Shown here: positions 2,633 through 42,702 of the stretch, one piece after another
How positions within the stretch are numbered: the stretch's first letter is position 1
How the letters are laid out: every line of letters starts with the position of its first letter
IMG/VR virus record: IMGVR_UViG_3300045988_133767
Coordinates: 1-42,702 of that record
From: a virus
Reading direction: 5' to 3' (one strand)
DNA length: 42,702 nucleotides
The notes under the pieces: model-generated
The model's database searches: none
What the model saw: the letters and a program-made list of their open reading frames with translations, nothing else
What the model was told of the DNA's origin: nothing
Made by a program: the position numbers and the translations under genes

Positions 2633-2967
2633 AACTCAAAGAGCTAATTGAGAATCTATATAAAAAGTTAGTGGGTGGTATGAAAATGCCACCTTCTTCT
2701 TTTTGGCATCTAACTATACATGAAGCTAATTTAGCACTAGAAGGGCATAAAAAAGAACAACAAGAGCAATATAACTTAAGTCTATGTTGCTTACAAAATG
2801 CTTTAGGAATGGCATTTGGAGGGGATAAATTCAAGCCTATCAATCCTTTTGAGAGCGCTAAGAGTAAAAAAGAAGCTCATAAAGTAAGCAAGAAACAAAG
2901 AGAAGAAAACTTGACATATATAAATAATTTATTTGAAAAATTTGGAGGTGGTGAAAATAGCAACTAA
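2297..2967 (+). CDS. tail assembly chaperone frameshift fusion (gpGT-like; -1 shift at 2623-2629)
   Basis: The downstream ORF (track 2671..2967) is in the -1 frame and is open back to 2620, with no independent RBS or ATG near 2620. This is the canonical G/GT arrangement upstream of a tape measure gene. Confidence 0.7.
2623..2629 (+). promoter_or_regulatory. -1 programmed ribosomal frameshift slippery heptamer G_GGA_AAG
   Basis: The zero-frame codons are GAG GGA AAG TAG. The -1 frame is open from 2620 to 2967. The X_XXY_YYZ pattern is satisfied, and the heptamer is the same as the lambda G/GT site. Confidence 0.8.
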
Positions 2968-3655
2968 AGTTTTAAATGTAAAGATCAATGCTGATATAGC
3001 TTCCTTCAAAACAAAAATGCAAGATGCTAGAAAATCAATCCAGGATATGTCAGAAAGCATTAAAAAGGCGACTGGCAATAGTAAATTAAGTGATGCATTA
3101 GGAGCTTCTGACTTTGGCAAAAAGCTAGAAGAAGTTAAAACTAAAGCATCTAATTTAGGACAAGTATTTAAAGCATTACCTGGACCAGCAAAAGCACTTG
3201 TTGTTGTAACTGCAGTATTAACAGTTACTAAAAAGTTATATGATGCTGGAAAACAGAGGTTTTTTGATGGACTGAATAACATAAAAGATACAGTCTCCCC
3301 TGTGTTTCAAGGTATGCTCACCTCAATAAATGCAGTTAAAGATGCTTTTAGTGAGTTAACAGGATTTGATTTTAATCTTTCAAGTCTTATAACAACTGGA
3401 GCAAACTTTGAATCACAAATGAAAACAGTTGCTACAATAGCTGGAAGTGTAGGAACTGAATTTGACCAGTTAGTTGCAAAAGCTAGAGAATTAGGAGCTG
3501 CAACTACATTTAGCGCTAGTCAAGTGGGCCAAGCAATGCAATATATGGCCATGGCTGGTTGGTCAACTCAAGAAATGCTTGACGGAGTACAATCAACATT
3601 AAATTTAGCAAAAATAGGGGCTACAGATTTAGGAACAGCAAGTGACATTTTGACT
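2933..3655 (+). CDS. tail tape measure protein, exon 1
   Basis: The coiled-coil N-terminus is followed by the TMP core motif ...ATTFSASQVGQAMQYMAMAGWSTQEMLDGVQSTLNLAKIGATDLGTASDILT. Coding-like sequence stops at ACT 3653-3655. The exact start is uncertain (TTG 2933, or GTG 2948/2951 next to GGAGG 2944-2948). Confidence 0.8.
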
Positions 3656-3943
3656 AAAATATTGGTCGGTTTAGTAGAAATACTATTCAAAAAATATTCG
3701 GTGAATTGCTGGAAGGCTAAGTTAATATTTGTAATTTATGGTATTAATATGCTAATCAGCAACCAAGCCATGGAAAGCCGTAAAAGTACATGGAAGGTTC
3801 AGAGACTAGGAGAATGAATAGGCAAATAATAATTTCTCCCACGAGCGCCGAACACCTTACTATTAAGTTAAAGGTGATGATATAGTCCCATCCTCTTATG
3901 AAAGTAAGAGTTCTAGGATAAAGAGCCTAGATATAAGATAATG
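3656..3943 (+). mobile_element. group I intron 1 in the tape measure gene (ORF-less, 288 nt)
   Basis: The 5' exon ends in U. Exon TTGACT (3650-3655) can pair with GGTCGG (3664-3669) to form P1 with a U.G pair at the splice site. There is a GAAA-tetraloop hairpin TAGTA-GAAA-TACTA. The P7 candidate is GACTA (3804-3808) with TAGTC (3883-3887), set in a GATATAGTCC context. The intron ends in G at 3943, and exon 2 resumes in frame. Confidence 0.8.
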
Positions 3944-4141
3944 GATGATTTAACTGCACTTGGCATGCAAGCAAATCAAGCTGGCGACTTTGCAGATAAA
4001 TTAGCTGCAACTATTACTAGAAGTAATACCGATGTTGTTTTATTCGGTGAATCTATGAAACAAACAGGCGCTATCGCTGGAGCATTAGGTGCTTCTATGA
4101 CAGATTTATCAACTAGTATCGGTCTAATGGCAAATGCGGGT
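3944..4141 (+). CDS. tail tape measure protein, exon 2
   Basis: Encodes DDLTALGMQANQAGDFADKLAATITRSNTDVVLFGESMKQTGAIAGALGASMTDLSTSIGLMANAG, which continues the TMP core motif exactly. There is no RBS before the apparent ATG at 3941. Confidence 0.8.
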
Positions 4142-4402
4142 AGACATACATGCTCGGTTACTAAGAAATTAGTAGCATAAAATACAGGGTTAAAATTGGA
4201 AAGCTAAGTCGAAAGATATGCTAATCAATTACCACTTCTATTAGGGATAATAGAAAGGTTTAGAGACTAGATAAAGTAAACTAGAACAGTTGAAATATCC
4301 ACGAAATCCTGCACCTAAGTTTAGAAAATATGGTGAAGAGATAGTCCGATACTCTTAGGAAACTAGGAGAGATAAGGATAAAGAGCCTTATTGTAACAAT
4401 TG
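4142..4402 (+). mobile_element. group I intron 2 in the tape measure gene (ORF-less, 261 nt)
   Basis: The 5' exon ends in U (GGT). Exon CGGGT (4137-4141) pairs with GCTCG (4152-4156), giving a U.G at the splice site. The P7 candidate is GACTA (4265-4269) with TAGTC (4342-4346). There is a GAAA-loop hairpin CTCTTAG-GAAA-CTAGGAG. The shared 3' block GGATAAAGAGCCT is present, and the intron ends in G at 4402. Confidence 0.75.
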
Positions 4403-4447
4403 ATTAAAGGTTCAAAGGCAGGTATGTCTTTGAAGAATATGTTGGCT
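4403..4447 (+). CDS. tail tape measure protein, exon 3 (45-nt micro-exon)
   Basis: Encodes IKGSKAGMSLKNMLA. This is the conserved G-IKGS-AG-LK motif of TP901-type tape measure proteins, in frame with both flanking exons. Confidence 0.75.
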
Positions 4448-5828
4448 AGAATATTGGTCGGTTTAGTAGAAATACTATTCAAAAAAGATTCGGCAATATC
4501 GGTGAAGGCTAAGTTTATTAATAATTGTAAATATGTTATAATATTTTTAGGGATAGTTAAGGAAGTCGCGAGCCTTAATGACAAGAAAGTTATCCGAGCT
4601 TTCTTCCCTTGTTAAATAAATCGGAAAATAAAAATACTGTCGGAGGTGTTTTTTATTATGAAAAAAATATGTATTTGTTGTGGTTTAGAAAAGGATATAA
4701 CAGAATTTTCTTTTAGAAAAGATACTAATAAGTATAGAAATCAATGTAAAGATTGCAGAAAGCAACAGAAAGCTAAATACGATAAAGAATATAATACCAA
4801 AAACAAAGAACGTAGAAAACAATATAGAAAAGAAAATGAAGCTAAAATAAAAGAACATAATAAACAATATTATGAAAAACATAAAGAAGTTTTAAAGAAA
4901 AATACTTCTGAATATTACCACAACAACAAAGCAAAAGTTTTAGAAAAATGCAAAGAATATAGAGAAAATAATAAAGAAAAAATAAAAATATCACAAAAGA
5001 AATATCGTGAAAGCAATAAAGTGTATTTAAATGAAAAGAGTAAACAGTATTACGAAGAACATAAAGAAGTTTTAAATGAAAGAAGAAAAAATTATCGTAT
5101 AGAAAATAATTTAGAAGTACGTAAATTAGATTACGAATATAGATTAAAAAATAAACACAGATATAAATACACTTGTAAGAATTGTGGCAAAAGCTTCACG
5201 GATTTTAAATTAGGAAGAAAGTTTTGCTCAACTGAATGTTTTAACGAGTATAATCAAGGCAGTAATAATCCTAATTACAATGTGAATTTAACAGATGAAG
5301 AAAGAGCTGAAAATAGAGATACAAAAGAATATAAAGTATGGAGAAAAAAGATTTTTGAAAAATATAATTATACTTGCCAATGTTGTGGGCAACAAGGCGG
5401 AGATATAGTTGCTCATCATTTAGATTCTTTTGATAAGAACAAAGAAAGTAGGCTTGACATAGAAAACGGAATAGTTCTTTGCAAGAAACATCATAAAGAA
5501 TTTCATCATATCTACGGATATGGTAACAATACAAAAGAACAATATGAACAATTTATAAATGATAAGGTATCTAAATAAGATGCCTTTTTATTTTGCAATT
5601 ATTAATAGATACGTTAATACCGAGATAACTTTATAGATTACGAAAGGCTATAAAGTATCGTAGAGCGTAGAGGGTGAATAAATATAATCCCTCCAAGAGT
5701 GTCGAACATCTTAACAAGTAAAGTTGAAGATGAAAATGTACGCCAAACTGAGTTGGAATTGACCAACTGATGAAAATGAAGGAAACTTCCAGAGGTGAAG
5801 ATAAAAAGCTTCACGATAATAACTATTG
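4448..5828 (+). mobile_element. group I intron 3 in the tape measure gene, carrying an HNH homing endonuclease ORF (1381 nt)
   Basis: The 5' exon ends in U (GCT). Exon TTGGCT (4442-4447) pairs with GGTCGG (4456-4461). The first 39 nt of the intron are near-identical to the start of intron 1. The P7 candidate is GCGTA (5665-5669) with TACGC (5739-5743). The intron ends in G at 5828. An ORF with its own RBS occupies 4658-5578. Confidence 0.8.
4658..5578 (+). CDS. intron-encoded HNH homing endonuclease
   Basis: RBS GGAGGTG is followed 9 nt later by ATG 4658. The N-terminus is Cys-containing, followed by Lys-rich repeats (KxYYExHKEVL). There is a zinc-ribbon motif CKNCGK...FCSTEC. The C-terminal HNH motif is CQCCG...VAHHLDSF...NGIVLCKKHHKEFHH. 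Confidence 0.85.
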   Translation: MKKICICCGLEKDITEFSFRKDTNKYRNQCKDCRKQQKAKYDKEYNTKNKERRKQYRKENEAKIKEHNKQYYEKHKEVLKKNTSEYYHNNKAKVLEKCKEYRENNKEKIKISQKKYRESNKVYLNEKSKQYYEEHKEVLNERRKNYRIENNLEVRKLDYEYRLKNKHRYKYTCKNCGKSFTDFKLGRKFCSTECFNEYNQGSNNPNYNVNLTDEERAENRDTKEYKVWRKKIFEKYNYTCQCCGQQGGDIVAHHLDSFDKNKESRLDIENGIVLCKKHHKEFHHIYGYGNNTKEQYEQFINDKVSK

Positions 5829-8483
5829 AATATGGCAAATCCAACAGACCAACAAGACAGAGCTTTACAAGAATTAGGAATGACTGCTGACAAAACAGGA
5901 AGTTATCTAAAAACAACAGCTGACGGATGTACAGATTTAGAAGCTACAGTAAAAGCATTAAGAGAAGGCACAGAAAATATGACAAGAAGTCAAAAAGCAG
6001 CTTTGATAGCTACTGTTGCTGGTAAAAATGCTTTACCAGGAGTTATGTCACTTGTTAATGCATCAGCAGAAGAATACAACAAGCTATCAGAAGCGATAGA
6101 CAATTCAACTTCTACAGTATCAATGTTTAATGAAAATATGAACATCTTAGGTTTAAAAGGCGAAGATGCTACAAAGAGAATAGAAGTCATGAAAGATGTA
6201 TTTTCTAATACTGAAACATCAGCAACAGCATTAGGATTGTCTAGTAAAGACTTAGGATATGCAATATCTTTACTTGGTGATGATTGTAAAGTTAGTTCTC
6301 AATCTGTAGAAGATTTACTCGATGTAGTAGAATCTATGGATAATGCTAGTGGTAAAGTTGATAAATTTTGGAGAAGTGTAGGAAATGCTAAAAACATAGA
6401 AATAGACGGAAAAGCAATAAATCAACTTATAGATTATAACGGAACTTTAAGTACTATAGATAATTCTATAGTTGGACTTAGTGATCATACAGTAGAATAT
6501 GCTAAAGCTCATAATGAAAACTATAAAAACACAAAAGAATATGTTAAATCACTTGTAAAAGAAGGAATGACAATAGACGATGCTAACAGTAAGCTTTCTA
6601 AATATGGAATAGAAGCTGAAAAAATATCATTATCTACATTATCAATGTCTCAAAAGACAGATTACCTAAGACAAGCATTTAAGGGCATGTCAGACGAACA
6701 AATAAAAGCTAAATTGCAAACTATAGGACTTGGAGATAGCTTTGATGAAGTTAACGAAATAGTTGATATGTCAGATGAAAAATATGCAACTTACAAGAAG
6801 AATCTTAAAGAAATTGAAGGATTATCAACTAGATTAGCTGACAGCATTGATGAAACAACAAAATCAACATTTTTAGCATTATCAAGTGCGATAGAAGATA
6901 GTTTAATAGGTGCATTTGAAAAAATGAAACCAGCGCTTATAAACGGCTCTCAAGCACTTACAGACTTTTTCTCAACTTGGAGAAACGGGGATAAAAACAC
7001 TTATACTTTTGATGGATTTGAAAAGGGATTAGCTGACTTAGAAACAAAAGTATCTAATGCAGCTAAAAATATACCTAATTTAATATCAAATGCAATAAGT
7101 GGTGCTAATAGATTTATAAGTGGTGGTTCTTTAGACAGTTTATTAAGCATGGGTAGTAGTATAGTTAAAAACATAGCTCAAGGCATAATAAACAACAAAG
7201 AAGGTTTATCAGCTGCAATAAGTAGTTTGATATCAAAAGTTTGTAGCTGGATTCAAGAAAATGGTCCTATGATCCAAGAAGCTGGCAAAGTTATCTTAGA
7301 AGCTATAGGAAACGGAATAAGAAATAATAGAGATCAAATAAATTCAGCATGCGGTATTATCTATGATGCAATGAACGATTGGTCGGCTGCAAATGCAGAA
7401 AATATGGGTATGCTTGGTGGTTCAGTAGCAGATAAATTTATATGGGGATTCTTAAAAGGCTTTACAATGGATAAATTTGCTGGTATAAAAGGATTTTTTG
7501 CTGGATTATTTAACAGCGACGGACAAGATGCTTATCAACAATGGGGTATTTCTAGTGGGCAAAATTACACCAATGGTATAAACTCAGGACTTGAACAAAG
7601 TAAATCTACAACAAATGCTACTGCAACAGAAATAGGCGATGGCATTTCCCAAAATATAATGAATAAGCTAGAAACTATGAATGCAAGTCAACTAAAAGAG
7701 TTAGAAAAAGAATTAAAATCCTTACAAACAACAACTCAAAATGTAGCTAATGGTATAGGTTCAAGCTTTGGAAAAATTAGAAATACAGTTAGAGAGAATT
7801 TAGTGGGTAGTGTTAACATAGGTAGAAATCAATTTGTCAACCTAGCTAATATTATAAGAAATCAATCTCAAAATGCTAGAAATAGCGCAACAAGAAGCTT
7901 TATATCACTTAGAAAAGTTATAAATACACAAATAACACAAGCTAGAACTGCTGTAACAAGTAAGATGATATCTATTGCTAATGTTGTAAGAACACAGTCA
8001 CAAAATGCACGTAACAATGCTACAAGAAGCTTTATATCACTTAGAAAAGTTATACAAACTCAAATGTCACAAGCTTATAGTTCTGTAAATAGTTATATGT
8101 CTAAAATAGCATCTGCTACAAATAGAACACTTAACACTAAAGTTAATGTTACTAGAACTGTTAATACTGTAAATCAGAGTGCTAGAACAGCTAATTTAAA
8201 AGCTGTAAACACAATGGCATATTCAAACTTAGCATATAGTGCTATAAGAGCTACAAATAATGCTGCTACTGCTAGTTTAGCTAGTACATCAACTTCAAGC
8301 TTTTCTAGTTCAACAGGTGTATCTAGTTCTTCTAATAGCACAGCAAAAGCTACTACAAGAGATATGAGGATAGTAATGCCAGTATATCTTGATAGCAAGG
8401 TCATAGGTGAATCTACTGCAGATATAGTAGATGATAAAATAAAAGTAAAAGCAAGAAGAGAAAACAGGAAGAGAGGTAGATAA
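5829..8483 (+). CDS. tail tape measure protein, exon 4
   Basis: Starts NMANPTDQQDRALQELGM, which completes the ...KNMLA|NMANPT motif. It then runs as a long helical protein with C-terminal tandem repeats. The apparent start at TTG 5826 has no RBS. Confidence 0.85.
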   Translation, partial: NMANPTDQQDRALQELGMTADKTGSYLKTTADGCTDLEATVKALREGTENMTRSQKAALIATVAGKNALPGVMSLVNASAEEYNKLSEAIDNSTSTVSMFNENMNILGLKGEDATKRIEVMKDVFSNTETSATALGLSSKDLGYAISLLGDDCKVSSQSVEDLLDVVESMDNASGKVDKFWRSVGNAKNIEIDGKAINQLIDYNGTLSTIDNSIVGLSDHTVEYAKAHNENYKNTKEYVKSLVKEGMTIDDANSKLSKYGIEAEKISLSTLSMSQKTDYLRQAFKGMSDEQIKAKLQTIGLGDSFDEVNEIVDMSDEKYATYKKNLKEIEGLSTRLADSIDETTKSTFLALSSAIEDSLIGAFEKMKPALINGSQALTDFFSTWRNGDKNTYTFDGFEKGLADLETKVSNAAKNIPNLISNAISGANRFISGGSLDSLLSMGSSIVKNIAQGIINNKEGLSAAISSLISKVCSWIQENGPMIQEAGKVILEAIGNGIRNNRDQINSACGIIYDAMNDWSAANAENMGMLGGSVADKFIWGFLKGFTMDKFAGIKGFFAGLFNSDGQDAYQQWGISSGQNYTNGINSGLEQSKSTTNATATEIGDGISQNIMNKLETMNASQLKELEKELKSLQTTTQNVANGIGSSFGKIRNTVRENLVGSVNIGRNQFVNLANIIRNQSQNARNSATRSFISLRKVINTQITQARTAVTSKMISIANVVRTQSQNARNNATRSFISLRKVIQTQMSQAYSSVNSYMSKIASATNRTLNTKVNVTRTVNTVNQSARTANLKAVNTMAYSNLAYSAIRATNNAATASLASTSTSSFSSSTGVSSSSNSTAKATTRDMRIVMPVYLDSKVIGESTADIVDDKIKVKARRENRKRGR

Positions 8484-21901: not shown

Positions 21902-21960
21902 TTACTGACAATTTACTGACCAGTTAAGTTTTTACTGACAAAACTGACAATTTACTGACT
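21902..21960. promoter_or_regulatory. cluster of five (T)TACTGAC repeats (candidate integrase arm-type sites, int-proximal arm of attP)
   Basis: Copies lie at 21902, 21913, 21932, 21943 (ACTGACA only) and 21952. The last copy overlaps the int stop codon. Confidence 0.5.
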
Positions 21961-23079
21961 TAGTATATTGTCAATTTTGTCAACTGCTATCTTATCATTT
22001 TCCTTAAAAGCGTGCGCGTAGATTTTTAATGTAATAGATATGTCGGAATGACCCACGCGTTCTGATATTGTTTTTACATCTACACCAGATGCAACTAACA
22101 TAGAAACATGAGAATGTCTTAATGCATGTAGCTTTTTAAATTCAAGCCCAATTCTTTTAATAAATCGTTTAAAAGTAATATCTAAATTGTACGGATTATA
22201 ATAATTGTTATTGCTGTTTATGCATACTGTGTCATATTCTTTTTCTTTCATTAAACCTTGTAACTTTAATTTATTTTGTCTTAATTTCTCTTTTTTTAGC
22301 ATGTCAAAAACATGATCTGGCAGAGAAATTTTTCTTATTGATGATTTACTCTTTGGTTGCTTCATGATATATTTACCTTCTATGTATTGTAAATTATATT
22401 GAATTTTTATAGTTTTATTTTCAAAGTCTACACAATCCCATGTTAAACCTAAAACCTCACCGCGTCTTAGACCTCCATAGATCAAAAGCTTTATAGCATT
22501 TTGAAAATATATACTTTCACTTTCTAAAGCGTTTAGTATCTGTTTTATTTCTTCTATCGAATATATTTCTTCTTCGTGTGTTTTATTATTCTTTGGAAGG
22601 ATAATAAAATCAGTAATCTTTTTATTTATCTCTTGTAATCTGTATGCTTCATTTAGTACAGCATTGCATAATTGCATTATTTTTCGTTTTGAGCGATAAG
22701 CTAAATCTTTTTGAAACACATAATTAACAAATGTTTGATATTTATTTACAGTTATGTCACTTAATTTCATATTTCCCCAATAAGTTTCGACATGTTTTTT
22801 TACGATACTTTTCGCACAAGCAATAGTATTTTCAGATATTCCTAACTTGCTATCGTAATATCGATAACAGCGATTTGTAAAAGAAATGTTACTCGGCAAA
22901 GCATAAATATCATTATTTATACTATTTTTAACTTCTATTAATTTTTTATCAGCATCTTTTTTATTTGCGTATGATCCTTGACTCTTTTGTTTCTTTTTGC
23001 CAACTTCATCTATATATTCTACATATACATAATATTTGTCATTTCTTTTACGTATAAAACTACTTAAGATTTTTTTCAT
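21952..23079 (-). CDS. int: tyrosine integrase
   Basis: 375 aa. The C-terminal catalytic signature ALRHSHVSMLV...GHSDISITLKIYAH is present, along with an N-terminal SAM-like arm/core-binding region. Confidence 0.9.
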   Translation of the reverse strand: MKKILSSFIRKRNDKYYVYVEYIDEVGKKKQKSQGSYANKKDADKKLIEVKNSINNDIYALPSNISFTNRCYRYYDSKLGISENTIACAKSIVKKHVETYWGNMKLSDITVNKYQTFVNYVFQKDLAYRSKRKIMQLCNAVLNEAYRLQEINKKITDFIILPKNNKTHEEEIYSIEEIKQILNALESESIYFQNAIKLLIYGGLRRGEVLGLTWDCVDFENKTIKIQYNLQYIEGKYIMKQPKSKSSIRKISLPDHVFDMLKKEKLRQNKLKLQGLMKEKEYDTVCINSNNNYYNPYNLDITFKRFIKRIGLEFKKLHALRHSHVSMLVASGVDVKTISERVGHSDISITLKIYAHAFKENDKIAVDKIDNILSQ

Positions 23080-24031: not shown

Positions 24032-24063
24032 AAAAGAGGGACTTAGAATTAAGTCCCTCTTTT
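24031..24063. terminator. bidirectional rho-independent terminator
   Basis: The 10-bp stem is AGAGGGACTT / AAGTCCCTCT, flanked by an A-run and a T-run. It overlaps the cI stop codon. Confidence 0.75.
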
Positions 24064-24378
24064 CATGCTTATTACAAGCCTTATTATATTGTTAAATTCT
24101 TCATCAGATAATTGGTCTGCTAGCTGAAGTGCTTGCTTTTGCTTTTCTGTTAGATCTTCAATAGGTTTTTTATTTTCATTAATCCCTAACAAATAATCAA
24201 CTGTAACACCGAAAAATTTTGCTAACTTAAACAAAGTATCTGAATCACATTTTCTTCTATTATTCTCCCAGTTGTTTACAGTTTGTTTACTTACGTTCAA
24301 AACTTTCCCCAAATCTTCTTGCGTAATATCTTTTTCCAGTCGCAGTTCTCTTAGTATATCTCCTTGTGTTTTCATCAT
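24049..24378 (-). CDS. CI-like repressor, XRE-family HTH, no peptidase S24 domain
   Basis: The HTH motif is ITQEDLGKVLNVSKQTVNNWEN. The protein is 109 aa. It is divergent from the cro-like gene. Confidence 0.8.
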   Translation of the reverse strand: MMKTQGDILRELRLEKDITQEDLGKVLNVSKQTVNNWENNRRKCDSDTLFKLAKFFGVTVDYLLGINENKKPIEDLTEKQKQALQLADQLSDEEFNNIIRLVISMKRGT

Positions 24379-32790: not shown

Positions 32791-32803
32791 AAGGGTGAAT
32801 AAA

Positions 32804-34240
32804 ATGGAATTTGAATGTGGTAGCATGACATCATTTGGCTGTGAACGTATGGACGGAGTAAAAGAATTAATCATGGCAGAGATAGAAGAAGCGATAGAAG
32901 AGATAAAAGAACAGGATGAAGCAAGAAGACCAGAATTAATAGCAATGATTCAACAAGAGAAAATGTGTACAAATGCTTGTTGCTATGGATGTGAAAAATC
33001 TAATTTATGTGTTTATACTTGCAATAGAGTAGATTGGCCAGATGAAGAAAGAAAAATTAATTATAAAGATGAAGAATTGAGACAAGAAAAACTTTTAGGC
33101 ATCAAATGTTACAACTGTGCAAAAGAAATCAATCAAGAAGGACATAAAGCAAATATTCGAAGTGATGAAGCTGATTGTGTATGGTTATGTGATGATTGCT
33201 TTAAAAAAGCATGTGGAGACCAAAGTAAATTTGAAGATCTAGAAAGAGAAAGATTAAAATACGAATTTAAACAAGAAGAAATAAAACAAGTTGATTATGA
33301 ACAACTGACATTTTTTTTAGGAGGTGACAACATGTTACAGATATTAGAGCTATTCGGAGGAATTGGAAGCCCTAGAGTAGCACTTAGAAATTTAGGAGTA
33401 CCAGTAAAAGCAATAGATTACATAGAAATAGATGAAAAAGCTGTTAGAAGCTATAATGAGATATTCAGAAATGAATTAGAATATAAAACTCAAGATGTAA
33501 GAGGCTGGAATCTTAAACCAGATATACTGATTCATGGTTCACCTTGTCAGAGTTTTAGCATTGCAGGTAAACAACAAGGAGCAGATGAAGGAAGCGGAAC
33601 AGAATCAAGTTTAATGTGGGAAACCATTAATATAATAAAACAAATGGGAATATGGAAGCCTAGAGTAGTTATTTGGGAAAATGTAAAAAATGTTTTATCA
33701 AAGCATATGATAAAAAACTTTAATCGATATTTGGAAGAAATGCAAAAACTAGGTTATACAAATTCATTTGAAATATTAAATGCTATGGATTTTGGATTAC
33801 CTCAAAATAGAGATAGAGTGTTTACTATAAGTTGTTTAGATGGAACATATTTTAATTTCATGGAACTACAAAGAAAACAATTAAGACCACTATCAGACTT
33901 TTTAGAAGATGAAGTTAGTGAAGAGTATACAGTAACTCAACCAAGCATTTTAAGAGGTATAGGTAAAGCAGGCACGATAAAAAGAACAACTGTTATAAAA
34001 GATTTTGCCTATACCATTACTGAAAGACAAGATAGATGTCCAGCACAAGTTATTGATCTAGGAAATAATAAGTACAGATTTCTTACAGATAGAGAGTGCT
34101 GGAGATTACAAGGCTATTCTGATGAAGATTATAATAACGCAGCTAAAGTGAATAGCAAAAGAGCATTATATAAACAAGCTGGAAATAGCATACCAACTAC
34201 AATATTTGAAGCTATTTTTAAAGTACTATTGGATTTATAA
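32804..34240 (+). CDS. DNA (cytosine-5)-methyltransferase fused in frame to an N-terminal Cys-rich domain
   Basis: The MTase motifs are ELFGGIGS (I), PCQSFS (IV), ENV (VI), QNRDR (VIII) and GNS (X). An internal RBS AGGAGGTG followed by ATG 33332 marks the start of the MTase core. The upstream 176 codons are Cys-rich. Confidence 0.85.
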   Translation: MEFECGSMTSFGCERMDGVKELIMAEIEEAIEEIKEQDEARRPELIAMIQQEKMCTNACCYGCEKSNLCVYTCNRVDWPDEERKINYKDEELRQEKLLGIKCYNCAKEINQEGHKANIRSDEADCVWLCDDCFKKACGDQSKFEDLERERLKYEFKQEEIKQVDYEQLTFFLGGDNMLQILELFGGIGSPRVALRNLGVPVKAIDYIEIDEKAVRSYNEIFRNELEYKTQDVRGWNLKPDILIHGSPCQSFSIAGKQQGADEGSGTESSLMWETINIIKQMGIWKPRVVIWENVKNVLSKHMIKNFNRYLEEMQKLGYTNSFEILNAMDFGLPQNRDRVFTISCLDGTYFNFMELQRKQLRPLSDFLEDEVSEEYTVTQPSILRGIGKAGTIKRTTVIKDFAYTITERQDRCPAQVIDLGNNKYRFLTDRECWRLQGYSDEDYNNAAKVNSKRALYKQAGNSIPTTIFEAIFKVLLDL

Positions 34241-37574: not shown

Positions 37575-38978
37575 TTGATATTAATACCAGGATTTGAAGA
37601 AGTAAAAAGACCTATATTTATTACAGATAAAGAAAGACTGGAGCTTGATAATGTGCAAAATATATTAGATGAGCACCAGTGGTTTAAAACTGAAAAATAT
37701 TATAGAAACTTGAAATATTATGAAGGTTATCACGAAATTTTAAATAGGACAATGGAAGATCCTAAAAAACCTAATAATAAAATAGTTGTAAACCTACCTA
37801 GCTTCACAACAGATATAAGAACTGGTTATTTTAGTGGAGAGCCTCTTACTTTTTCTAGTGAAGATGATAATGTAACAGAAACAATAAATAATATCCTTGA
37901 TTACAATGATTTTCAAGATGTAAACACAGAGCTTGACCGATTAACTAGTATATACGGCCATGCTTTTTTAATTTTATACATGGATAAAGAAGCTAATGTT
38001 AGATTTGCGACAGAAACTCCTGATAATATGATTATTGTTTATGACAATAGCTTAGAAAAGAATATTGTAGGAGCTGTAAGATATTATTACTATACTGATG
38101 TATCTGATAATGAGCAAAAGGTTTATATGACAGTCTACAACAAAGATATGATTGAATACTATAACGGCAAAGTAGGAGCACCAGAGTTAGTAGATATAGA
38201 AGAAAACTACTTTGATGGCATTCCTGTTATTGAATTTGTAGAAAATGAAAACCGAAAAGGCTGTTATGAGGATGCAATAAGCTTAGTAGATGCAATAGAA
38301 TCTGTTATTAGTAGTTCAGTTAATGAGATAGAGTACTTTGATAATGCTTACTTACTGTTAAAAAATTTAGCTGGGACAGAAAAAGAAGATATCGACAAGA
38401 TGAAAGAAAATCGAGTTATGTTAGTTGAAGATGATGGCGATGCTGAATTTATTACAAAAACAGTAGATGATGATTATACTCAAAACTTGCTTAATAGATT
38501 AGTTAATGACTATCACAAAGTCACAAAAACACCTAACTTAACAGATGAAAAGTTTGCTGGCAATGTTAGTGGAGTATCGCTTAAATTTAAGTTATTCGCA
38601 CTTGAAAAAGATATGGCTAAGAAAGAGAGTAAATGGAAAAAGTCAATCCAAAGAATGCTAGAGCTTATATGCACTGTTTTAAACATAAAAGGAACAAGCA
38701 TTGATTACAGAACTATCAAGATAACATTTACTAGAGCATTACCAACTAATACATTAGAACAGGCTCAAATGGTTTCTCAGTTATCTGGAATAGTTTCAAG
38801 AGAAACATTATTAGCTCAGTTAGATTTTATCGAAAATCCTAAGCAAGAAATAGAATTGATAGATAAAGAGCAAGAGGAACAAATGAAGAAGTTTGATATG
38901 TATGCTGATAGTGATGTGGTTAGTGATCCAAAAGAGGGAGATAAATCTCAATGGGCAGAAGAGCAAAGTATTACTTAG
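37575..38978 (+). CDS. portal protein (SPP1 gp6-like)
   Basis: 467 aa. RBS AGGAGGTG precedes a TTG start. Its position and size fit a portal, and the C-terminus is acidic. Confidence 0.85.
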   Translation: MILIPGFEEVKRPIFITDKERLELDNVQNILDEHQWFKTEKYYRNLKYYEGYHEILNRTMEDPKKPNNKIVVNLPSFTTDIRTGYFSGEPLTFSSEDDNVTETINNILDYNDFQDVNTELDRLTSIYGHAFLILYMDKEANVRFATETPDNMIIVYDNSLEKNIVGAVRYYYYTDVSDNEQKVYMTVYNKDMIEYYNGKVGAPELVDIEENYFDGIPVIEFVENENRKGCYEDAISLVDAIESVISSSVNEIEYFDNAYLLLKNLAGTEKEDIDKMKENRVMLVEDDGDAEFITKTVDDDYTQNLLNRLVNDYHKVTKTPNLTDEKFAGNVSGVSLKFKLFALEKDMAKKESKWKKSIQRMLELICTVLNIKGTSIDYRTIKITFTRALPTNTLEQAQMVSQLSGIVSRETLLAQLDFIENPKQEIELIDKEQEEQMKKFDMYADSDVVSDPKEGDKSQWAEEQSIT

Positions 38979-39859
38979 GAATGAAAAATCGTGATTACTG
39001 GCATCAAAGAATGTTAGATAGAGACAAGAAAAGTAAGTTATCTGAGGACAAGGCAGTAAAGAAATTAGCTGATGCTTATCACGATTCTTATATGCAAATA
39101 TCAAAGGAGTTAGATAGCTTCTATAATAAATATGCAATAGAAAACAATTTAACTTATGTAGAAGCAACTAAACTATTAACTCCAGTAGAAATGCGAGAAT
39201 ATGGATATAAAGTCCAAAAATTAAAACAGTTATATCAAGCTACTAAAAGTGAAGAAGTGTTAGCACAATGGAAAATAATGAGTGCTAGAGGCAAAGTGAC
39301 AAGGCTACAAAGTTTACTTGATGGAATAGATATAGAGCTTATAAAAAATACACATAATGTACAAATGAATATGACAGAGCATCTAACAGGAATGTATAAA
39401 AGGTCCTATAAAGAAGCTTTAGCTGATGCTGGAGTAACAAACAAAGTATTACCTAAAAGAGCTATCAAAGATGCAATAAGTTATCCTTGGAGTGGTAGAC
39501 AGTTTAGCAGTAGAATATGGAGCAATAAAACAGCTACAATGAATAACATAAGGGAAACACTAACAAAAGGATTAATACAAGGAAAATCAGTACAGAAAAT
39601 GGGACAGGAGCTAAGGAAATTAGAAGGTGCTAGTAAGTATCAAGCTGAAAGGCTTATACGAACTGAGACCAATTTTTTTATGACCAAAGGCCATGTTGAT
39701 GGATATAAAGACAATGGAGTAAAGGCCTTAGAGATATGTGTTGCATTTGATGAAAGAACATGTGCTGACTGTGAAAGCATGGACAGGGAGGTGGTTAAAA
39801 TCGAAGAAGTAAGTTATGGTAGTAATGTTCCACCGTTTCATTGCTTTTGTCGAACCTAA
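38951..39859 (+). CDS. head morphogenesis protein (SPP1 gp7 / Mu F-like)
   Basis: The motifs SSRIWSN, AERLIRTETN and the C-terminal CADCESMDREVV...PPFHCFCR are present. Confidence 0.85.
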   Translation: MGRRAKYYLGMKNRDYWHQRMLDRDKKSKLSEDKAVKKLADAYHDSYMQISKELDSFYNKYAIENNLTYVEATKLLTPVEMREYGYKVQKLKQLYQATKSEEVLAQWKIMSARGKVTRLQSLLDGIDIELIKNTHNVQMNMTEHLTGMYKRSYKEALADAGVTNKVLPKRAIKDAISYPWSGRQFSSRIWSNKTATMNNIRETLTKGLIQGKSVQKMGQELRKLEGASKYQAERLIRTETNFFMTKGHVDGYKDNGVKALEICVAFDERTCADCESMDREVVKIEEVSYGSNVPPFHCFCRT

Positions 39860-39914
39860 TATTTCGCTGTACAATTTTACCTGTCACAGATTATAAAGAA
39901 GGAGAATATTAAAT

Positions 39915-40352
39915 ATGAACATTGGGGGAAATATTAGAAAATACAGAAAAGATAAAAATGTATCAAGAAAAGAATTAGCTAATGAGATAGGATGCTCAGT
40001 TTATGCTATTGAAAAATACGAACAAGGTCAGCGAACTCCAAACATAAACACATTAATGGCTATAGGCAAAGCTTTAGATGTTACTTATACAGATTTAATC
40101 GAAGGAAAAGAGCACAAGGGTTTAAAAGTTACTGTAAAACTTACTGAAACAGATATAGTTGAAAACATTATACGAATGTTGAAACAAGTTGCTCTAGATG
40201 AAAGAATAGATAAAAACATAAGAGATGAATATCTAGCTGATTTATCTGAACAAATAGGTTTTGATATTGTTATTAATGATAAACCAACAGATTTTAAGCT
40301 AGATAAAAATACTCATGATAATATAATGCAAAAGTTTACTAAGGTTGAATAG
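39915..40352 (+). CDS. XRE-family HTH protein inserted in the head module
   Basis: The HTH motif is VSRKELANEIGCSVYAIEKYEQGQRTPNINTLMAIGKAL. The protein is 145 aa with RBS AAGGAG. Confidence 0.75.
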   Translation: MNIGGNIRKYRKDKNVSRKELANEIGCSVYAIEKYEQGQRTPNINTLMAIGKALDVTYTDLIEGKEHKGLKVTVKLTETDIVENIIRMLKQVALDERIDKNIRDEYLADLSEQIGFDIVINDKPTDFKLDKNTHDNIMQKFTKVE

Positions 40353-40363
40353 GAGGATAGTAA

Positions 40364-40870
40364 ATGAATTTTAAACAAGCATTAGAAGAAATGAAAAAAG
40401 GAATACCTATGAAATTACCTTCATGGGGTGGCTATTGGTGTTGGGACAATGAAAAAGAAACTATTATGATGCACTGTAGACCAAAAGATGCAGATGAAGG
40501 ACAAGGTCCTATATTAGATATAAGAGAAACACAAAGAGTTGAATACACCCTAGGCAATGTTTTATCTGATGAATGGGTAATTGCTGACAATAAAAACTGT
40601 ACTTTATTAGGTGGAACTCCTACTTTCGGTTTTAGTGAAGCTATAAAATACTTAAAACGTGGATTAAAAGTGTGTAGACAAGGTTGGAATGGCAAAGGAA
40701 TGTATTTAGCTCATGTAAATTCTTATCAATATAAAGTAGATGGAGAAGTGCATAAAGATAGTTTATTTTTATCACCTTGGATAGGAATGAAAACAGCAGA
40801 TGGGAAATTTGTTCCGTGGTTAGCAAGTCAAACTGATATGTTAGCAGAAGATTGGATGTTTGCTGAATAA
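40364..40870 (+). CDS. tandem DUF2829-like protein (Tad2-like, candidate anti-Thoeris sponge)
   Basis: The second half reads FGFSEAIKYLKRGLKVCRQGWNGKGMYL...MKTADGKFVPWLASQTDMLAEDWMFAE, which is the DUF2829 signature as recalled. The first half (MNFKQALEEMKKGIPMKLPSWGGYW...LSDEWVIAD) is a divergent copy. Confidence 0.65.
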   Translation: MNFKQALEEMKKGIPMKLPSWGGYWCWDNEKETIMMHCRPKDADEGQGPILDIRETQRVEYTLGNVLSDEWVIADNKNCTLLGGTPTFGFSEAIKYLKRGLKVCRQGWNGKGMYLAHVNSYQYKVDGEVHKDSLFLSPWIGMKTADGKFVPWLASQTDMLAEDWMFAE

Positions 40871-40884
40871 AGGGGATGGTAAAA

Positions 40885-41148
40885 ATGGATAGACAAGAAG
40901 TTATAAATATATTCGCTCAAGAAATGGCTAAAACACAAAAGAAAGCAGATAAATTTTATTATGAACAAAATAATAAAGATATGAGTTCTTATTGTGAAGA
41001 TCATGCCTTAGTAATAAAAAATTTAGCTATTAAACTCGGTATATGTGAAGAAGTTTATCAAGAAGCTTATAAAATATATGATTTTAGAAACTCAGGTAAA
41101 AAAGGATACACATTAAAAAATGGGAAAATAGTTAAAATAGAGGGGTAA
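40885..41148 (+). CDS. hypothetical protein
   Basis: 87 aa from ATG 40885. The RBS is AGGGG. Confidence 0.45.
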   Translation: MDRQEVINIFAQEMAKTQKKADKFYYEQNNKDMSSYCEDHALVIKNLAIKLGICEEVYQEAYKIYDFRNSGKKGYTLKNGKIVKIEG

Positions 41149-41151
41149 AAT

Positions 41152-41370
41152 ATGAAACAAAAGGTCAAAAGTAATTTTGAAGAAAAAATGGAGCAAAATT
41201 TAAAAAATTGTTATGAAAAGAAAATAGAAAAATATAAAAAAGAGCATGAAAAAGAAATAGAACATGTAAAATCAATAGAAGAACAACTTAAGGAATCAAT
41301 GGAAGCACAATATGATAAAGACTTAATAGATTATGATGCTCTTTTCAAATCATTAACTAAATGGGCATAA
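41152..41370 (+). CDS. hypothetical coiled-coil protein
   Basis: 72 aa with RBS AGAGGGG. Confidence 0.45.
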   Translation: MKQKVKSNFEEKMEQNLKNCYEKKIEKYKKEHEKEIEHVKSIEEQLKESMEAQYDKDLIDYDALFKSLTKWA

Positions 41371-41549
41371 GGAGGGATAAAATGAGCGATTCTCGTTAGC
41401 TCAATTATATAATGATAAAATAAATGAGTATAATCAAGAATCATATGTACATAGTCAATATATTACAGATGTAATATTAGATGAAATATATAAGCTAACA
41501 AGATATTGAACGATATGGACATTGGACATATTGGGCAAGGAGGTAAACG

Positions 41550-42182
41550 ATGAAAAAAGGTATAAAAATGAATTTACAGTTAATGGCTGATACTGGAGCT
41601 GGTGGTGGAACACCAAGCCAAACAGGTGGTGGAACAATTACTGATACTGGAGCTGGTGAGGGTTCTAATACAGGAGGAACAGGAAATCAAGCACCATCAT
41701 TTGATGATATTTTAGGCGGGAATAAAGACTATCAAGCCGAATTTGACAGAAGAGTAAGCAAGGCTTTACAAACTGCACAAACTAAATGGGAAGCAAATAA
41801 ACAAACTGCTATAACAGAAGCTGTGACAGAAGCTGAAAAACTTGCGAAAATGAAGTCAGATGAGAAAGCTAAATATGAGCAAGAAAAAAGAATAAAAGAA
41901 CTAGAAAAAAGAGAAAGAGATATAACAACTAGAGAGCTAAAGGCTCAAGCTTATGAAACATTAGCAGAAAAGAATTTACCAAAAGAGTTAATTGATACTC
42001 TTAATTTTTCGGATGCAGAAACTTGCAATGCTTCAATAGAAGCGGTTGAAAAGGCATTCCAAAATGCTGTTAAAAAGGCAGTTGAGGAAAGATTAAAAGG
42101 AGCTAAACCTGTAAAACCAGCAGACCAAACCACAGGAGATGTATTTGGATTTAACTTTACAGGTGTAAGACCTAGAAAATAA
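41550..42182 (+). CDS. capsid scaffolding protein
   Basis: RBS AAGGAGG is present. The N-terminus is Gly-rich and is followed by a long charged coiled coil. The gene lies immediately upstream of the capsid gene. Confidence 0.75.
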   Translation: MKKGIKMNLQLMADTGAGGGTPSQTGGGTITDTGAGEGSNTGGTGNQAPSFDDILGGNKDYQAEFDRRVSKALQTAQTKWEANKQTAITEAVTEAEKLAKMKSDEKAKYEQEKRIKELEKRERDITTRELKAQAYETLAEKNLPKELIDTLNFSDAETCNASIEAVEKAFQNAVKKAVEERLKGAKPVKPADQTTGDVFGFNFTGVRPRK

Positions 42183-42199
42183 TAGAAAGGATGATGTAA

Positions 42200-42702
42200 A
42201 TGACAGTAAATTACGCAGAAAGTTATTCAAGAGAATTAGCAAATGCTTATCCATATGTCTTATATTCAGGAGCATTATGGAGTAACGAAAATACAAAAAA
42301 ATATAAAGTAGTAGATGCAAAGACTATAAAAATACCACTTTTATCTACTGGAGGCAGAGTTGACGGAGATAGAACTAAAATTGGAGACTTCTCTCAAAAC
42401 TTCTCAAATGAATGGGAGACTAAAACACTTACTAACCATAGAATTTGGCAAACACTAGTGCATCCACAAGATGTAAATCAAACTAATATGGTAGCATCTA
42501 TAAGTAACATTACAAAAGTAATGAATGAAACTAAAAAGTTTCCTGAGCTAGATGCAATGATGTTCTCTACTATATATAGTTTAAGAAATGCACAAAAAGC
42601 AATAACTGCTGAAACTGCTGATTTAACAGCAAATACAGTATTGACTAAATTTGATGCTATGATGGATGCTATGGATGAAGCATTAGTGCCAGTAAGTGGA
42701 AG
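42200..42702 (+). CDS. major capsid protein, N-terminal part (runs off the window and continues at 1..467)
   Basis: ATG 42200 lies after AAAGGATGATG. The frame is open to the window end. It is not in the ORF track because no stop is reached. Confidence 0.8.
   Translation, partial: MTVNYAESYSRELANAYPYVLYSGALWSNENTKKYKVVDAKTIKIPLLSTGGRVDGDRTKIGDFSQNFSNEWETKTLTNHRIWQTLVHPQDVNQTNMVASISNITKVMNETKKFPELDAMMFSTIYSLRNAQKAITAETADLTANTVLTKFDAMMDAMDEALVPVSG
42648..42702. repeat. 55-bp exact repeat of bases 1-55 (circular-assembly overlap)
   Basis: The two ends match exactly by direct comparison. The repeat lies inside the capsid ORF. Confidence 0.95.

Follow-up and report, generated by a model that had tools for sequence, protein, structure and literature searches.

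A gene in the head module of a temperate siphophage encodes a 168-amino-acid (aa) protein made of two consecutive Tad2-like (DUF2829) domains, a canonical C-terminal one preceded by a diverged copy. The gene lies in IMG/VR record IMGVR_UViG_3300045988_133767, which was analyzed over its whole length of 42,702 nucleotides (nt) and is referred to here as the window. We are highly confident that the product is a two-domain member of the Tad2 family carried as a mobile moron. From its sequence and predicted structure, the protein likely acts as a sponge for nucleotide signals. We favor, with somewhat less assurance, a two-module Tad2-family sponge for ADP-ribose (ADPR) signals derived from Toll/interleukin-1 receptor (TIR) proteins.

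A first-pass annotation, made from the letters of the DNA, had placed a regulator gene and a gene for a 168-aa protein of two DUF2829 halves at 39915-40870, between the head morphogenesis and scaffold genes. Both open reading frames (ORFs) are found there on the plus strand, at 39915-40352 (145 aa) and 40364-40870 (168 aa), and the strings quoted from the second product, RQGWNGKGMYL and PWLASQTDMLAEDW, occur in its translation. The gene for the tandem protein is built as follows.

40364..40870, plus strand: two-domain Tad2-like protein, 168 aa, member of phrog_1048 (PF11195 and phrog_1048 matches)
40364..40582, plus strand: N-type domain, aa 1-73, a diverged DUF2829 copy (profile, profile-profile and model comparison)
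40583..40624, plus strand: conserved interdomain linker, aa 74-87
40625..40867, plus strand: canonical short Tad2 domain, aa 88-168 (PF11195)
40682..40693, plus strand: GWNG motif, G107-G110, with W108 and N109 equivalent to W25 and N26 of SPO1 Tad2 and to W21 and N22 of HgmTad2
40709..40813, plus strand: hypervariable C-domain insertion, aa 116-150, short as in SPO1 Tad2
40817..40837, plus strand: WLASQTD motif, W152-D158, equivalent to W73, S76, T78, and D79 of SPO1 Tad2 and to W87, L88, S90, T92, and D93 of HgmTad2

Searched as a whole, the protein matched PF11195 ("Tad2-like") in two stretches (E=8.5e-28, 97.1 bits; the family cut-off is 25 bits) and, end to end, phrog_1048, whose function is unannotated (E=1.9e-55). 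The AlphaFold2 model of the full chain has a predicted local distance difference test score (pLDDT) of 87 and a predicted template modeling score (pTM) of 0.74. With this model, a Foldseek search of the PDB returned significant matches to 24 Tad2 chains only (probability 1.0; target-based template modeling score, TMt, 0.59-0.85), with E values of about 1e-6 to 1e-7 against all solved Tad2 structures. In the Tad2 fold, a helix at the N terminus leads into an antiparallel sheet whose loops contain short helices; the order of helices and strands in the full model is alike in the N-half and the C-half. Membership in the DUF2829/Tad2 family, which the first-pass annotation had proposed, is thus borne out by profile search, PDB sequence matches, and Foldseek; two of the checks that it had suggested, a PF11195 profile search and a structure comparison, both agree, the latter for each of the halves.

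The C-terminal half alone matches PF11195 at E=4e-24 (85.4 bits), in keeping with its earlier description as a canonical DUF2829 domain. By sequence it matches every solved Tad2 in the PDB, namely ModTad2, SPO1 Tad2, HgmTad2/AcrIIA7, pdAcrIIA7, and SptTad2 (E=1.7e-14 to 8.5e-12), and it is 45% identical to SPO1 Tad2 and 40% identical to ModTad2. Ligand and water contacts in the complex of SPO1 Tad2 with 3' cyclic ADPR (3'cADPR, or 1''-3' gcADPR) involve 10 positions, W25, N26, I63, T65, D67, H71, W73, S76, T78, and D79 (bioRxiv 10.1101/2023.05.01.538930); HgmTad2 contacts its ligand through W21, N22, G23, W87, L88, S90, T92, and D93 (bioRxiv 10.1101/2023.11.15.567273). By alignment, the equivalents of these known contacts in the C-domain are W108, N109, G110, T144, D146, W152, L153, S155, T157, and D158. 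Eight of the 10 SPO1 Tad2 contacts are identical. At the other two, I63 is replaced by M142 (HgmTad2 likewise has a methionine, M76), and the counterpart of H71 falls in the F149/V150 region. Retention of these ligand-contact residues in the C-domain makes a role as an anti-Thoeris sponge plausible.

Modeled separately, the N-terminal half (pLDDT 90.5) had one meaningful match in the PDB, the SPO1 Tad2 chain 8smf_G (template modeling score 0.61/0.62, probability 1.0, 16% identity). Alignment of the N-half and C-half profiles with hhalign gave 89.5% probability over the first 22 columns only, which comprise helix alpha1 and the W-N/G-G turn. Of the gcADPR contact set found in the C-domain, the N-domain keeps just W21 (equivalent to W108), G23, and T62 (S155); it also shares the terminal W71 (W164). 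N109 is replaced by G22 and D158 by N65, and the second Trp is lost (V59 or R54). The domain has its own set of invariant residues, K17, L18, P19, W21, G23, W25, W27, D52, I53, R54, T56, T62, and W71, including an invariant loop of its own, D52-I53-R54-x-T56, and bears the signature KLPSWGGYWxW ... LDIRETQRVEYT ... LSDEW. In the linker that follows, N78 and G84 are invariant and G83 is nearly so (alignment A2). The model has pLDDT above 90 in the linker region, which suggests a fixed orientation between the two domains.

Across 40 family members, mean pairwise identity is 0.71 in the N-domain, 0.75 in each of the two parts of the C-domain core (aa 88-115 and aa 151-168), and 0.22 in the insertion between them (aa 116-150). 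The N-domain is therefore as conserved as the C-domain core, a sign of strong purifying conservation, and what evolution has held constant in the family is the diverged N-domain rather than the canonical Tad2 domain. Recombination exchanges a few discrete sequence types of the C-domain insertion (alignment A1); in the phage contig L011, for example, the gene is 89% identical to that of the window on either side of the insertion and differs in the middle. The insertion region forms a second ligand pocket in HgmTad2 and ModTad2, and the insertion types may track the signal types of the hosts.

A search with a profile of the N-domain recovered 605 cluster representatives at 50% identity among 1.84 billion proteins, nearly always with the domain at the N terminus of proteins of about 135-200 aa; because frameshifted and truncated representatives contaminate this set, the motif census made on it is used qualitatively only. 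Three architectures were distinguished. First, the N-type domain occurs alone in proteins of 74-75 aa, namely P0234, P0195, and gp24 of RG-TP1, an induced prophage of R. gnavus; P0234 (74 aa) is present on 24 contigs, the longest of them 72 kb. Second, it is joined to a canonical Tad2 domain, as in the window, in 70 of the 73 closest IMG/VR relatives and in 112 of the 116 top homology matches that bear the N-type motif. Third, it precedes a shortened or degenerate second domain without WNG and W..S..D (P0138, P0154, P0172, P0184, and P0158). We considered whether the stand-alone genes could be split tandem genes and rejected this, since no Tad2 C-domain lies behind P0234 (on contig L178) or behind gp24, after which RG-TP1 has no C-domain reading frame. 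Behind the stand-alone gene of L178 lies a 99-aa ORF (L178 3238-3537) that is DUF4406-like by eye only, its Pfam entry in the gene table being blank.

These architectures bear on the role of the N-domain. It could be a structural pseudo-protomer, in which case the duplication would hard-wire the Tad2 oligomer with half the pockets and no new specificity. The N-half has indeed lost the WNG Asn, the second Trp, and the pocket Asp, and the conserved, confidently modeled linker suggests a rigid N-C unit. We nevertheless regard this explanation as unlikely: the N-domain equals the ligand-binding core in conservation, W21, W25, W27, D52, R54, T56, and T62 form an invariant polar and aromatic set of its own, and it exists stand-alone and is retained where the C-domain has lost its pocket, the opposite of what a scaffold would show. 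Because it persists alone and beside a decayed partner, the N-domain is probably not a passive scaffold for that partner. That it is a separate Tad2-derived sponge module with a ligand of its own is a tentative proposal, one that we would put well below an even chance. Gut Clostridia might supply such a ligand in the form of an immune signal or a second messenger outside the range of the known sponges.

The family comprises at least 3,600 protein clusters at 90% identity. There are 290 matches in species-representative genomes, and the best 80 loci are almost all from gut Clostridia of humans and animals. Proteins identical to the 168-aa protein are present on at least 79 contigs by homology search and in 108 index blocks of the contig collection, and the exact protein is already in NCBI nr as "MAG TPA: Protein of unknown function (DUF2829)". 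Megablast of window positions 38900-42702 against GenBank phages found nothing; relatives there are detectable at the protein level only. The Vibrio phages VH7D and ValKK3 and their relatives (~247 kb) gave one tblastn segment covering query residues 31-165 at about 32% identity, and this segment adjoins a gene for an anti-sigma factor. DUF2829 domains in tandem, or next to each other, may thus also occur outside phages of Clostridia.

How would a tandem sponge work? Tad2 proteins form homotetramers with pockets at the protomer interfaces. The tandem protein would also oligomerize, most economically as a dimer that mimics the Tad2 homotetramer with a four-domain assembly. If two tandem chains pair, one of the three interface types of Tad2 would be homotypic (N:N' and C:C') and the other two would be N:C. 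This geometry implies that the pockets would be either one canonical C:C pocket and one novel N:N pocket or two asymmetric N:C hybrids; the N-type domain would accordingly provide either a second pocket with different specificity or the asymmetric half of hybrid pockets. The C-domain pocket would sequester a TIR-made, ADPR-type alarm signal, so that Thoeris-type effectors stay off. Judging by pocket residues, Thoeris-type ADPR signals are the target that we consider reasonably probable. The SQTD pocket motif is shared with the type I binders SPO1 Tad2 and HgmTad2, which makes 3'cADPR, and hence type I Thoeris, the first candidate; His-ADPR and N7-cADPR are other candidate signals.

The protein could instead be a sponge for other signals, such as the cyclic dinucleotides of the cyclic oligonucleotide-based antiphage signaling system (CBASS) or the cyclic CMP and cyclic UMP (cUMP) of the pyrimidine cyclase system for antiphage resistance (Pycsar), bound at the interface of paired protomers, as in HgmTad2 and ModTad2, or by the N-type domain. 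Tad2 family members block Thoeris I, II, and IV, CBASS, and Pycsar (bioRxiv 10.1101/2025.08.24.671296), homologues inhibiting the latter two systems via the second pocket, and the N-domain has basic residues (K17 and R54 invariant, R58 nearly so) that would suit phosphate-rich ligands. However, cyclic-dinucleotide binding by HgmTad2 and SptTad2 needs an insertion of 35-41 residues between beta2 and beta5. The W108-W152 spacing here is 44 aa, compared with 48 in SPO1 Tad2 and 66 in HgmTad2, and therefore this insertion is absent; even SPO1 Tad2, with its longer spacing, failed to bind cyclic dinucleotides. The ADPR pocket residues are also kept, which argues that the pocket is in use. Non-Thoeris signals as the main target consequently appear improbable.

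More remote still is an AcrIIA7-like anti-CRISPR function, in which a basic groove of the oligomer would bind trans-activating CRISPR RNA (tracrRNA) and so keep the Cas9 ribonucleoprotein from assembling. The C-half matches two DUF2829 proteins, AcrIIA7, which is the same protein as HgmTad2, and pdAcrIIA7 (E=4e-13 and 2e-12, respectively). A 2026 paper assigns tracrRNA binding to K58, K66, and K71 in pdAcrIIA7 numbering (PMC13133391), and two of these three lysines have counterparts in the C-domain, K98 and K111. The equivalent of K66, however, is Q106, and the N-domain lacks most of the basic groove residues. The basic residues that are present align to basic ones in SPO1 Tad2, ModTad2, and HgmTad2, and so do not discriminate. 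Moreover, Li et al. (bioRxiv 10.1101/2023.11.15.567273) did not reproduce the anti-CRISPR activity, which needs micromolar protein and is abolished by the 48-aa N-terminal extension of pdAcrIIA7, whereas the core here is preceded by an extension of 87 aa (N-type domain plus linker). We find this function very hard to credit.

Several observations weigh against a two-module sponge for ADPR signals. The N-half alone scores below the PF11195 cut-off (E=0.0019, 19.2 bits), although over profile positions 1-72 of 73, so the earlier claim of two DUF2829 halves, upheld by the two PF11195 stretches and the model of the N-half, needs this qualification. Searched against PDB sequences, the N-half profile matched Tad2 non-significantly (E about 0.5), with a chance nanobody hit at the top. 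No predicted structure in BFVD covers the whole two-domain model (query-based score, TMq, at most 0.44). By a small margin, the C-half is closest in sequence to ModTad2, a sponge against type II that leaves type I Thoeris unblocked, and any ligand named for the protein is therefore tentative. Finally, the gene sits inside the late structural operon without a terminator-like site and with promoter-like sites at chance level, while a sponge needs early expression.

The tandem gene nonetheless occupies a part of the genome in which genes come and go. The slot between the Mu-F gene and the scaffold gene holds four tightly packed ORFs on the same strand, for a helix-turn-helix (HTH) protein, the 168-aa protein, and the small proteins p90 and p72. 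The features of the slot and its borders are as follows.

38951..39859, plus strand: Mu-F-like minor head/head morphogenesis protein, 302 aa, left border (PF04233 E=4.7e-16; phrog_115 E=5.9e-85)
39847-39875: weak promoter-like site TTGTCG-17-TACAAT, 9/12 match
39860..39914, plus strand: junction between the Mu-F gene and the slot, with ribosome-binding site AAGGAG
39915..40352, plus strand: XRE-family HTH protein, 145 aa (HTH_3 E=8e-12, residues 7-61)
40349..40889, plus strand: mobile DNA block of ribosome-binding site and tandem Tad2-like gene (blastn to otherwise unrelated phages)
40876..41148, plus strand: p90, small protein of 90 aa (87 aa if translation starts at the ATG at 40885), occasional co-traveler of the Tad2-like gene
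41152..41370, plus strand: p72, small charged protein of 72 aa, probably helical, frequent co-traveler
41550..42182, plus strand: DUF4355 head scaffolding protein, right border (PF14265 E=1.6e-26; phrog_172 E=5.4e-47)

By blastn, the block is shared with L009 (40349-40887, 91.3% identity), L047 (40349-40889, 91.1%), and L010 (40349-41384, 94.1%); the recombinant L011 matches at 40351-40696 and 40829-40889. These phages are otherwise distant, their TerL proteins being 28% identical to that of the window and their portal and Mu-F proteins 25-36%, or 25-26% where the block is 91% identical; this discrepancy supports the proposal of a moron-type insert in the head module. The left end of the shared DNA lies in the last bases of the HTH gene (40349; its TAG stop is at 40350-40352), and the right end lies just past the stop of the tandem gene (L009 and L047) or after p72 (L010). 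The tandem gene, p90, and p72 move as a single block in L010, where p90 is 100% identical and p72 69% identical, and the tandem gene moves alone in L009. A p72 homologue of 50-52% identity follows the tandem gene immediately in L047 and L011, from which p90 is absent, and L169 and L174 have the tandem gene without either. The suggestion that the two small downstream ORFs belong to the same insert therefore holds for L010 and, for p72 alone, in L047 and L011, and fails for L009, L169, and L174. The lone family match of p90 is a sub-threshold one to DUF6075 (E=5e-4, 20.4 bits against a cut-off of 23.8), and p90 has no match in PHROG or PADLOC. The Tad2-like protein and p72 likewise have no PADLOC match, and the regulator shows no more than general HTH similarity there.

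Among IMG/VR loci of the family, the 74 distinct upstream neighbors include minor capsid protein 2 (n=7), YjcQ (n=4), and Mu-F (n=3), so that Mu-F or minor capsid protein 2 accounts for 10 of the 74. Downstream neighbors are scaffold proteins, endolysins, DUF6275, and others. The homologue in the Dorea phage DO134P1 is at the same Mu-F/scaffold site, that in the R. gnavus phage phiRg507T2_3 is between holin and endolysin, and other members are in lysis cassettes or replication regions. A structural role in head assembly was considered and rejected on account of the homologues in lysis cassettes and replication regions and of the sister phages from which the gene is missing.

In close relatives, the gene content of the Mu-F/scaffold interval varies, and this interval has the hallmarks of a hot spot, with variable cargo at a fixed position and a gene common to unrelated phages. 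The sister phages L171-L173 and L175 lack any Tad2. Behind the HTH gene, L171 and L173 each have a 67-aa ORF, accompanied in L171 by a Rha-like regulator and in L173 by a T5orf172/MUG113-domain protein that weakly matches a homing endonuclease in PHROG. L175 has a phrog_2428 protein, and the cargo of L172 is a Nuc_deoxyri_tr2-like protein of 247 aa, a PF21825 protein, DUF6275, and a Rha-like protein. Members of PF21825, the Sequestin family, have been shown experimentally to be 3'cADPR sponges (bioRxiv 10.1101/2025.07.12.664507). Because L172 carries a Sequestin-family protein behind the same HTH gene, the slot alternates between two kinds of anti-Thoeris sponge, and this alternation is the best contextual support for an anti-defense role.

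Other genes near sponge genes were recorded. The Nuc_deoxyri_tr2-like protein of L172 (3453-4196; PF15891) is encoded immediately after the HTH gene, in the accessory position of sponge genes, and the 99-aa ORF of L178 likewise occupies such a position. DUF6275 (PF19791, phrog_918) is encoded in L003 (6866-7132), L172 (4465-4731), L178-L180 and L182 (3531-3836), and L183 (2033-2317), and different phages place it next to tandem genes of the Tad2-like type, stand-alone N-type genes, or Sequestin genes; this recurrence makes it an anti-defense candidate by guilt by association. In L183-L186, the start of the P0184 gene lies within a 4-nt overlap with a Sequestin (PF21825) gene, in an early/replication region near a D12-class methyltransferase and DnaB. 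The two look like a two-gene sponge pair.

The HTH protein consists of an N-terminal HTH domain (aa 7-61) and an uncharacterized C-terminal domain of about 80 aa. It had been proposed as a dedicated regulator of the tandem gene, a view that did not survive comparison. The shared block excludes the HTH gene, and an HTH domain is encoded by only 1 of the 74 distinct upstream neighbors, that one belonging to a close relative. At 77-95% identity, the same HTH gene is the first gene after Mu-F in sister phages with entirely different cargo, including the Tad2-less L171-L173 and L175. A gene for an HNH/NUMOD3 homing endonuclease (281-294 aa) replaces the HTH-coding 5' part in L006 (6843-7989) and L174 (2058-3240), leaving an intact ORF for the C-terminal 88-89 aa of the regulator, and L175 encodes only the C-terminal 90 aa, with no HNH gene. 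The C-terminal domain may thus have a function of its own. In this lineage the HTH gene comes with the slot, as its resident first gene, and has no particular tie to the Tad2-like gene.

A broader form of regulation, in which the HTH protein would govern the whole slot, has some appeal. As in operons with anti-CRISPR-associated (Aca) regulators, repression of a promoter at the Mu-F/HTH junction would give it control over any cargo behind it, the Tad2-like gene included. Consistent with this, the HTH gene is a constant first gene before variable cargo that includes two kinds of anti-Thoeris sponge, the junction upstream of it is conserved (the string CCTGT.AC.GATTATAA.GAAGG.GA is kept in sister phages regardless of the next gene), and the 9/12 promoter-like site lies at this junction. 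Promoter-like sites are, however, at chance level (19, versus 15.3 +/- 3.3 in shuffled sequence), a terminator scan found no terminator-like site, and an operator search at the junction yielded no convincing palindrome (only an imperfect one, at 71%). We therefore claim no dedicated promoter or operator. In addition, L006, L174, and L175 lack an intact HTH domain and still carry the cargo, the HTH gene of L003 has a different upstream region, and outside this lineage the tandem gene has no HTH neighbor. Aca-like control of the slot is thus possible but doubtful. The slot resembles acr-aca loci in that an HTH gene adjoins variable anti-defense cargo. It differs in the place of the HTH gene, upstream instead of downstream, and in that the search turned up no operator. 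Relatives can also do without the HTH, which is not associated with the Tad2-like family at large.

The window as a whole is a complete, circularly permuted genome of ~42.7 kb. The host is presumably one of the gut Clostridia, probably of the Lachnospiraceae; the best match in representative genomes is 66% identical. Other genes include those for TerS, TerL, an SPP1-type portal, and the following.

21952-23079, minus strand: integrase
24049-24378, minus strand: CI-like repressor

A C5 cytosine DNA methyltransferase of 481 aa (32795-34240; PF00145 E=7.6e-55) likely serves an anti-restriction function, and relatives have different methylase variants at its position. The tape-measure gene (2933-8483) is interrupted by two group I introns (Rfam RF00028 at 3646-3910, 105.9 bits, and at 4116-4369, 53.9 bits). 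Exon 2933-3817 matches positions 3-65 of the PhageMin_Tail profile, and exon 3941-4180 matches positions 65-130. An HNH_2 ORF (4646-5578, 310 aa) lies ~280 bp past the second intron match and ahead of ORF 5826-8483. The latter has no Pfam match of its own and is taken as the last exon because L003 and L008 carry a single uninterrupted gene of 1200 aa; L004 and L006 have a different HNH insertion at this place.

Tad2 sponges are among the most widespread phage counter-defenses, and their ligand range is still growing. Already known are Tad2 sponges, fusions of sponges from unrelated families, and this very sequence as DUF2829; as far as we found, the tandem form is undescribed. The searchable literature contained no account or assay of a Tad2-Tad2 tandem or N-type subtype, although the 18 Tad2 homologues tested in a screen of 84 sponges could include one; the supplements of that screen contained no sequences with N-type motifs. 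Should the N-type domain prove to be a sponge module of its own that adds a second specificity or forms N:C hybrid pockets, the tandem protein would be the first covalently hard-wired, asymmetric sponge oligomer, and the HTH-anchored Mu-F/scaffold slot would be an anti-defense island, with DUF6275, the DUF4406/Nuc_deoxyri_tr2-like proteins, phrog_2428, p90, and p72 as candidate inhibitors. The slot thereby offers a guilt-by-association route to new anti-defense genes in gut phages. If the N-domain binds its own signal, the catalogue of immune signals sequestered by phages would be extended, and a handle on TIR or other nucleotide signaling in Lachnospiraceae would be gained; if it is merely a scaffold, the protein would be an ordinary Tad2 homologue with an unusual architecture.

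The closest characterized relatives are single-domain proteins. SPO1 Tad2 (gp34.65; PDB 8SME, 8SMF, and 8SMG), the founder of PF11195, resembles the C-domain in fold (TMt up to 0.85), in the GWNG and W..SQTD residues, and in its short insertion. It is, however, a homotetramer of 89-aa single-domain chains, and the typical Tad2 protein is a single domain of about 90-105 aa, whereas here a diverged domain stands in front and the chain has 168 aa. ModTad2/MoTad2 (PDB 9EIB and 8V3E), a sponge for His-ADPR and cUMP and the best PDB sequence match (E=1.7e-14, 40% identity), is likewise single-domain, has SVSD in its pocket in place of SQTD, and blocks Thoeris of type II though not of type I. HgmTad2, which is AcrIIA7 (PDB 8KBI-8KBM), and pdAcrIIA7 (PDB 9KZR) share the DUF2829 core and a near-identical C-terminal motif, GWLASQTDMLANDW. 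Unlike the protein described here, they bind cGG and cGAMP through a long insertion, and the N-terminal extra part of pdAcrIIA7 is a 48-residue, two-helix "head" rather than a second DUF2829 domain.

Full-length homologues with 53-56% identity do exist among phrog_1048/"DUF2829" entries (gp19 of phiRg507T2_3 and the DO134P1 homologue), which carry no functional annotation and in which the two-domain anatomy is undescribed. A parallel in design is found in the Acb4-Tad2, Tad2-Sequestin, and Sequestin-Acb4 fusions of Tal et al. (bioRxiv 10.1101/2025.07.12.664507), which likewise have two sponge-type domains per polypeptide. Such fused sponges are documented and functional, and the logic proposed for them is that one gene blocks several signals (same reference). 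Those fusions join unrelated families, whereas both domains of the tandem protein descend from the same fold; of these, only the C-domain has a known sponge pocket, its partner being a diverged Tad2 subtype.

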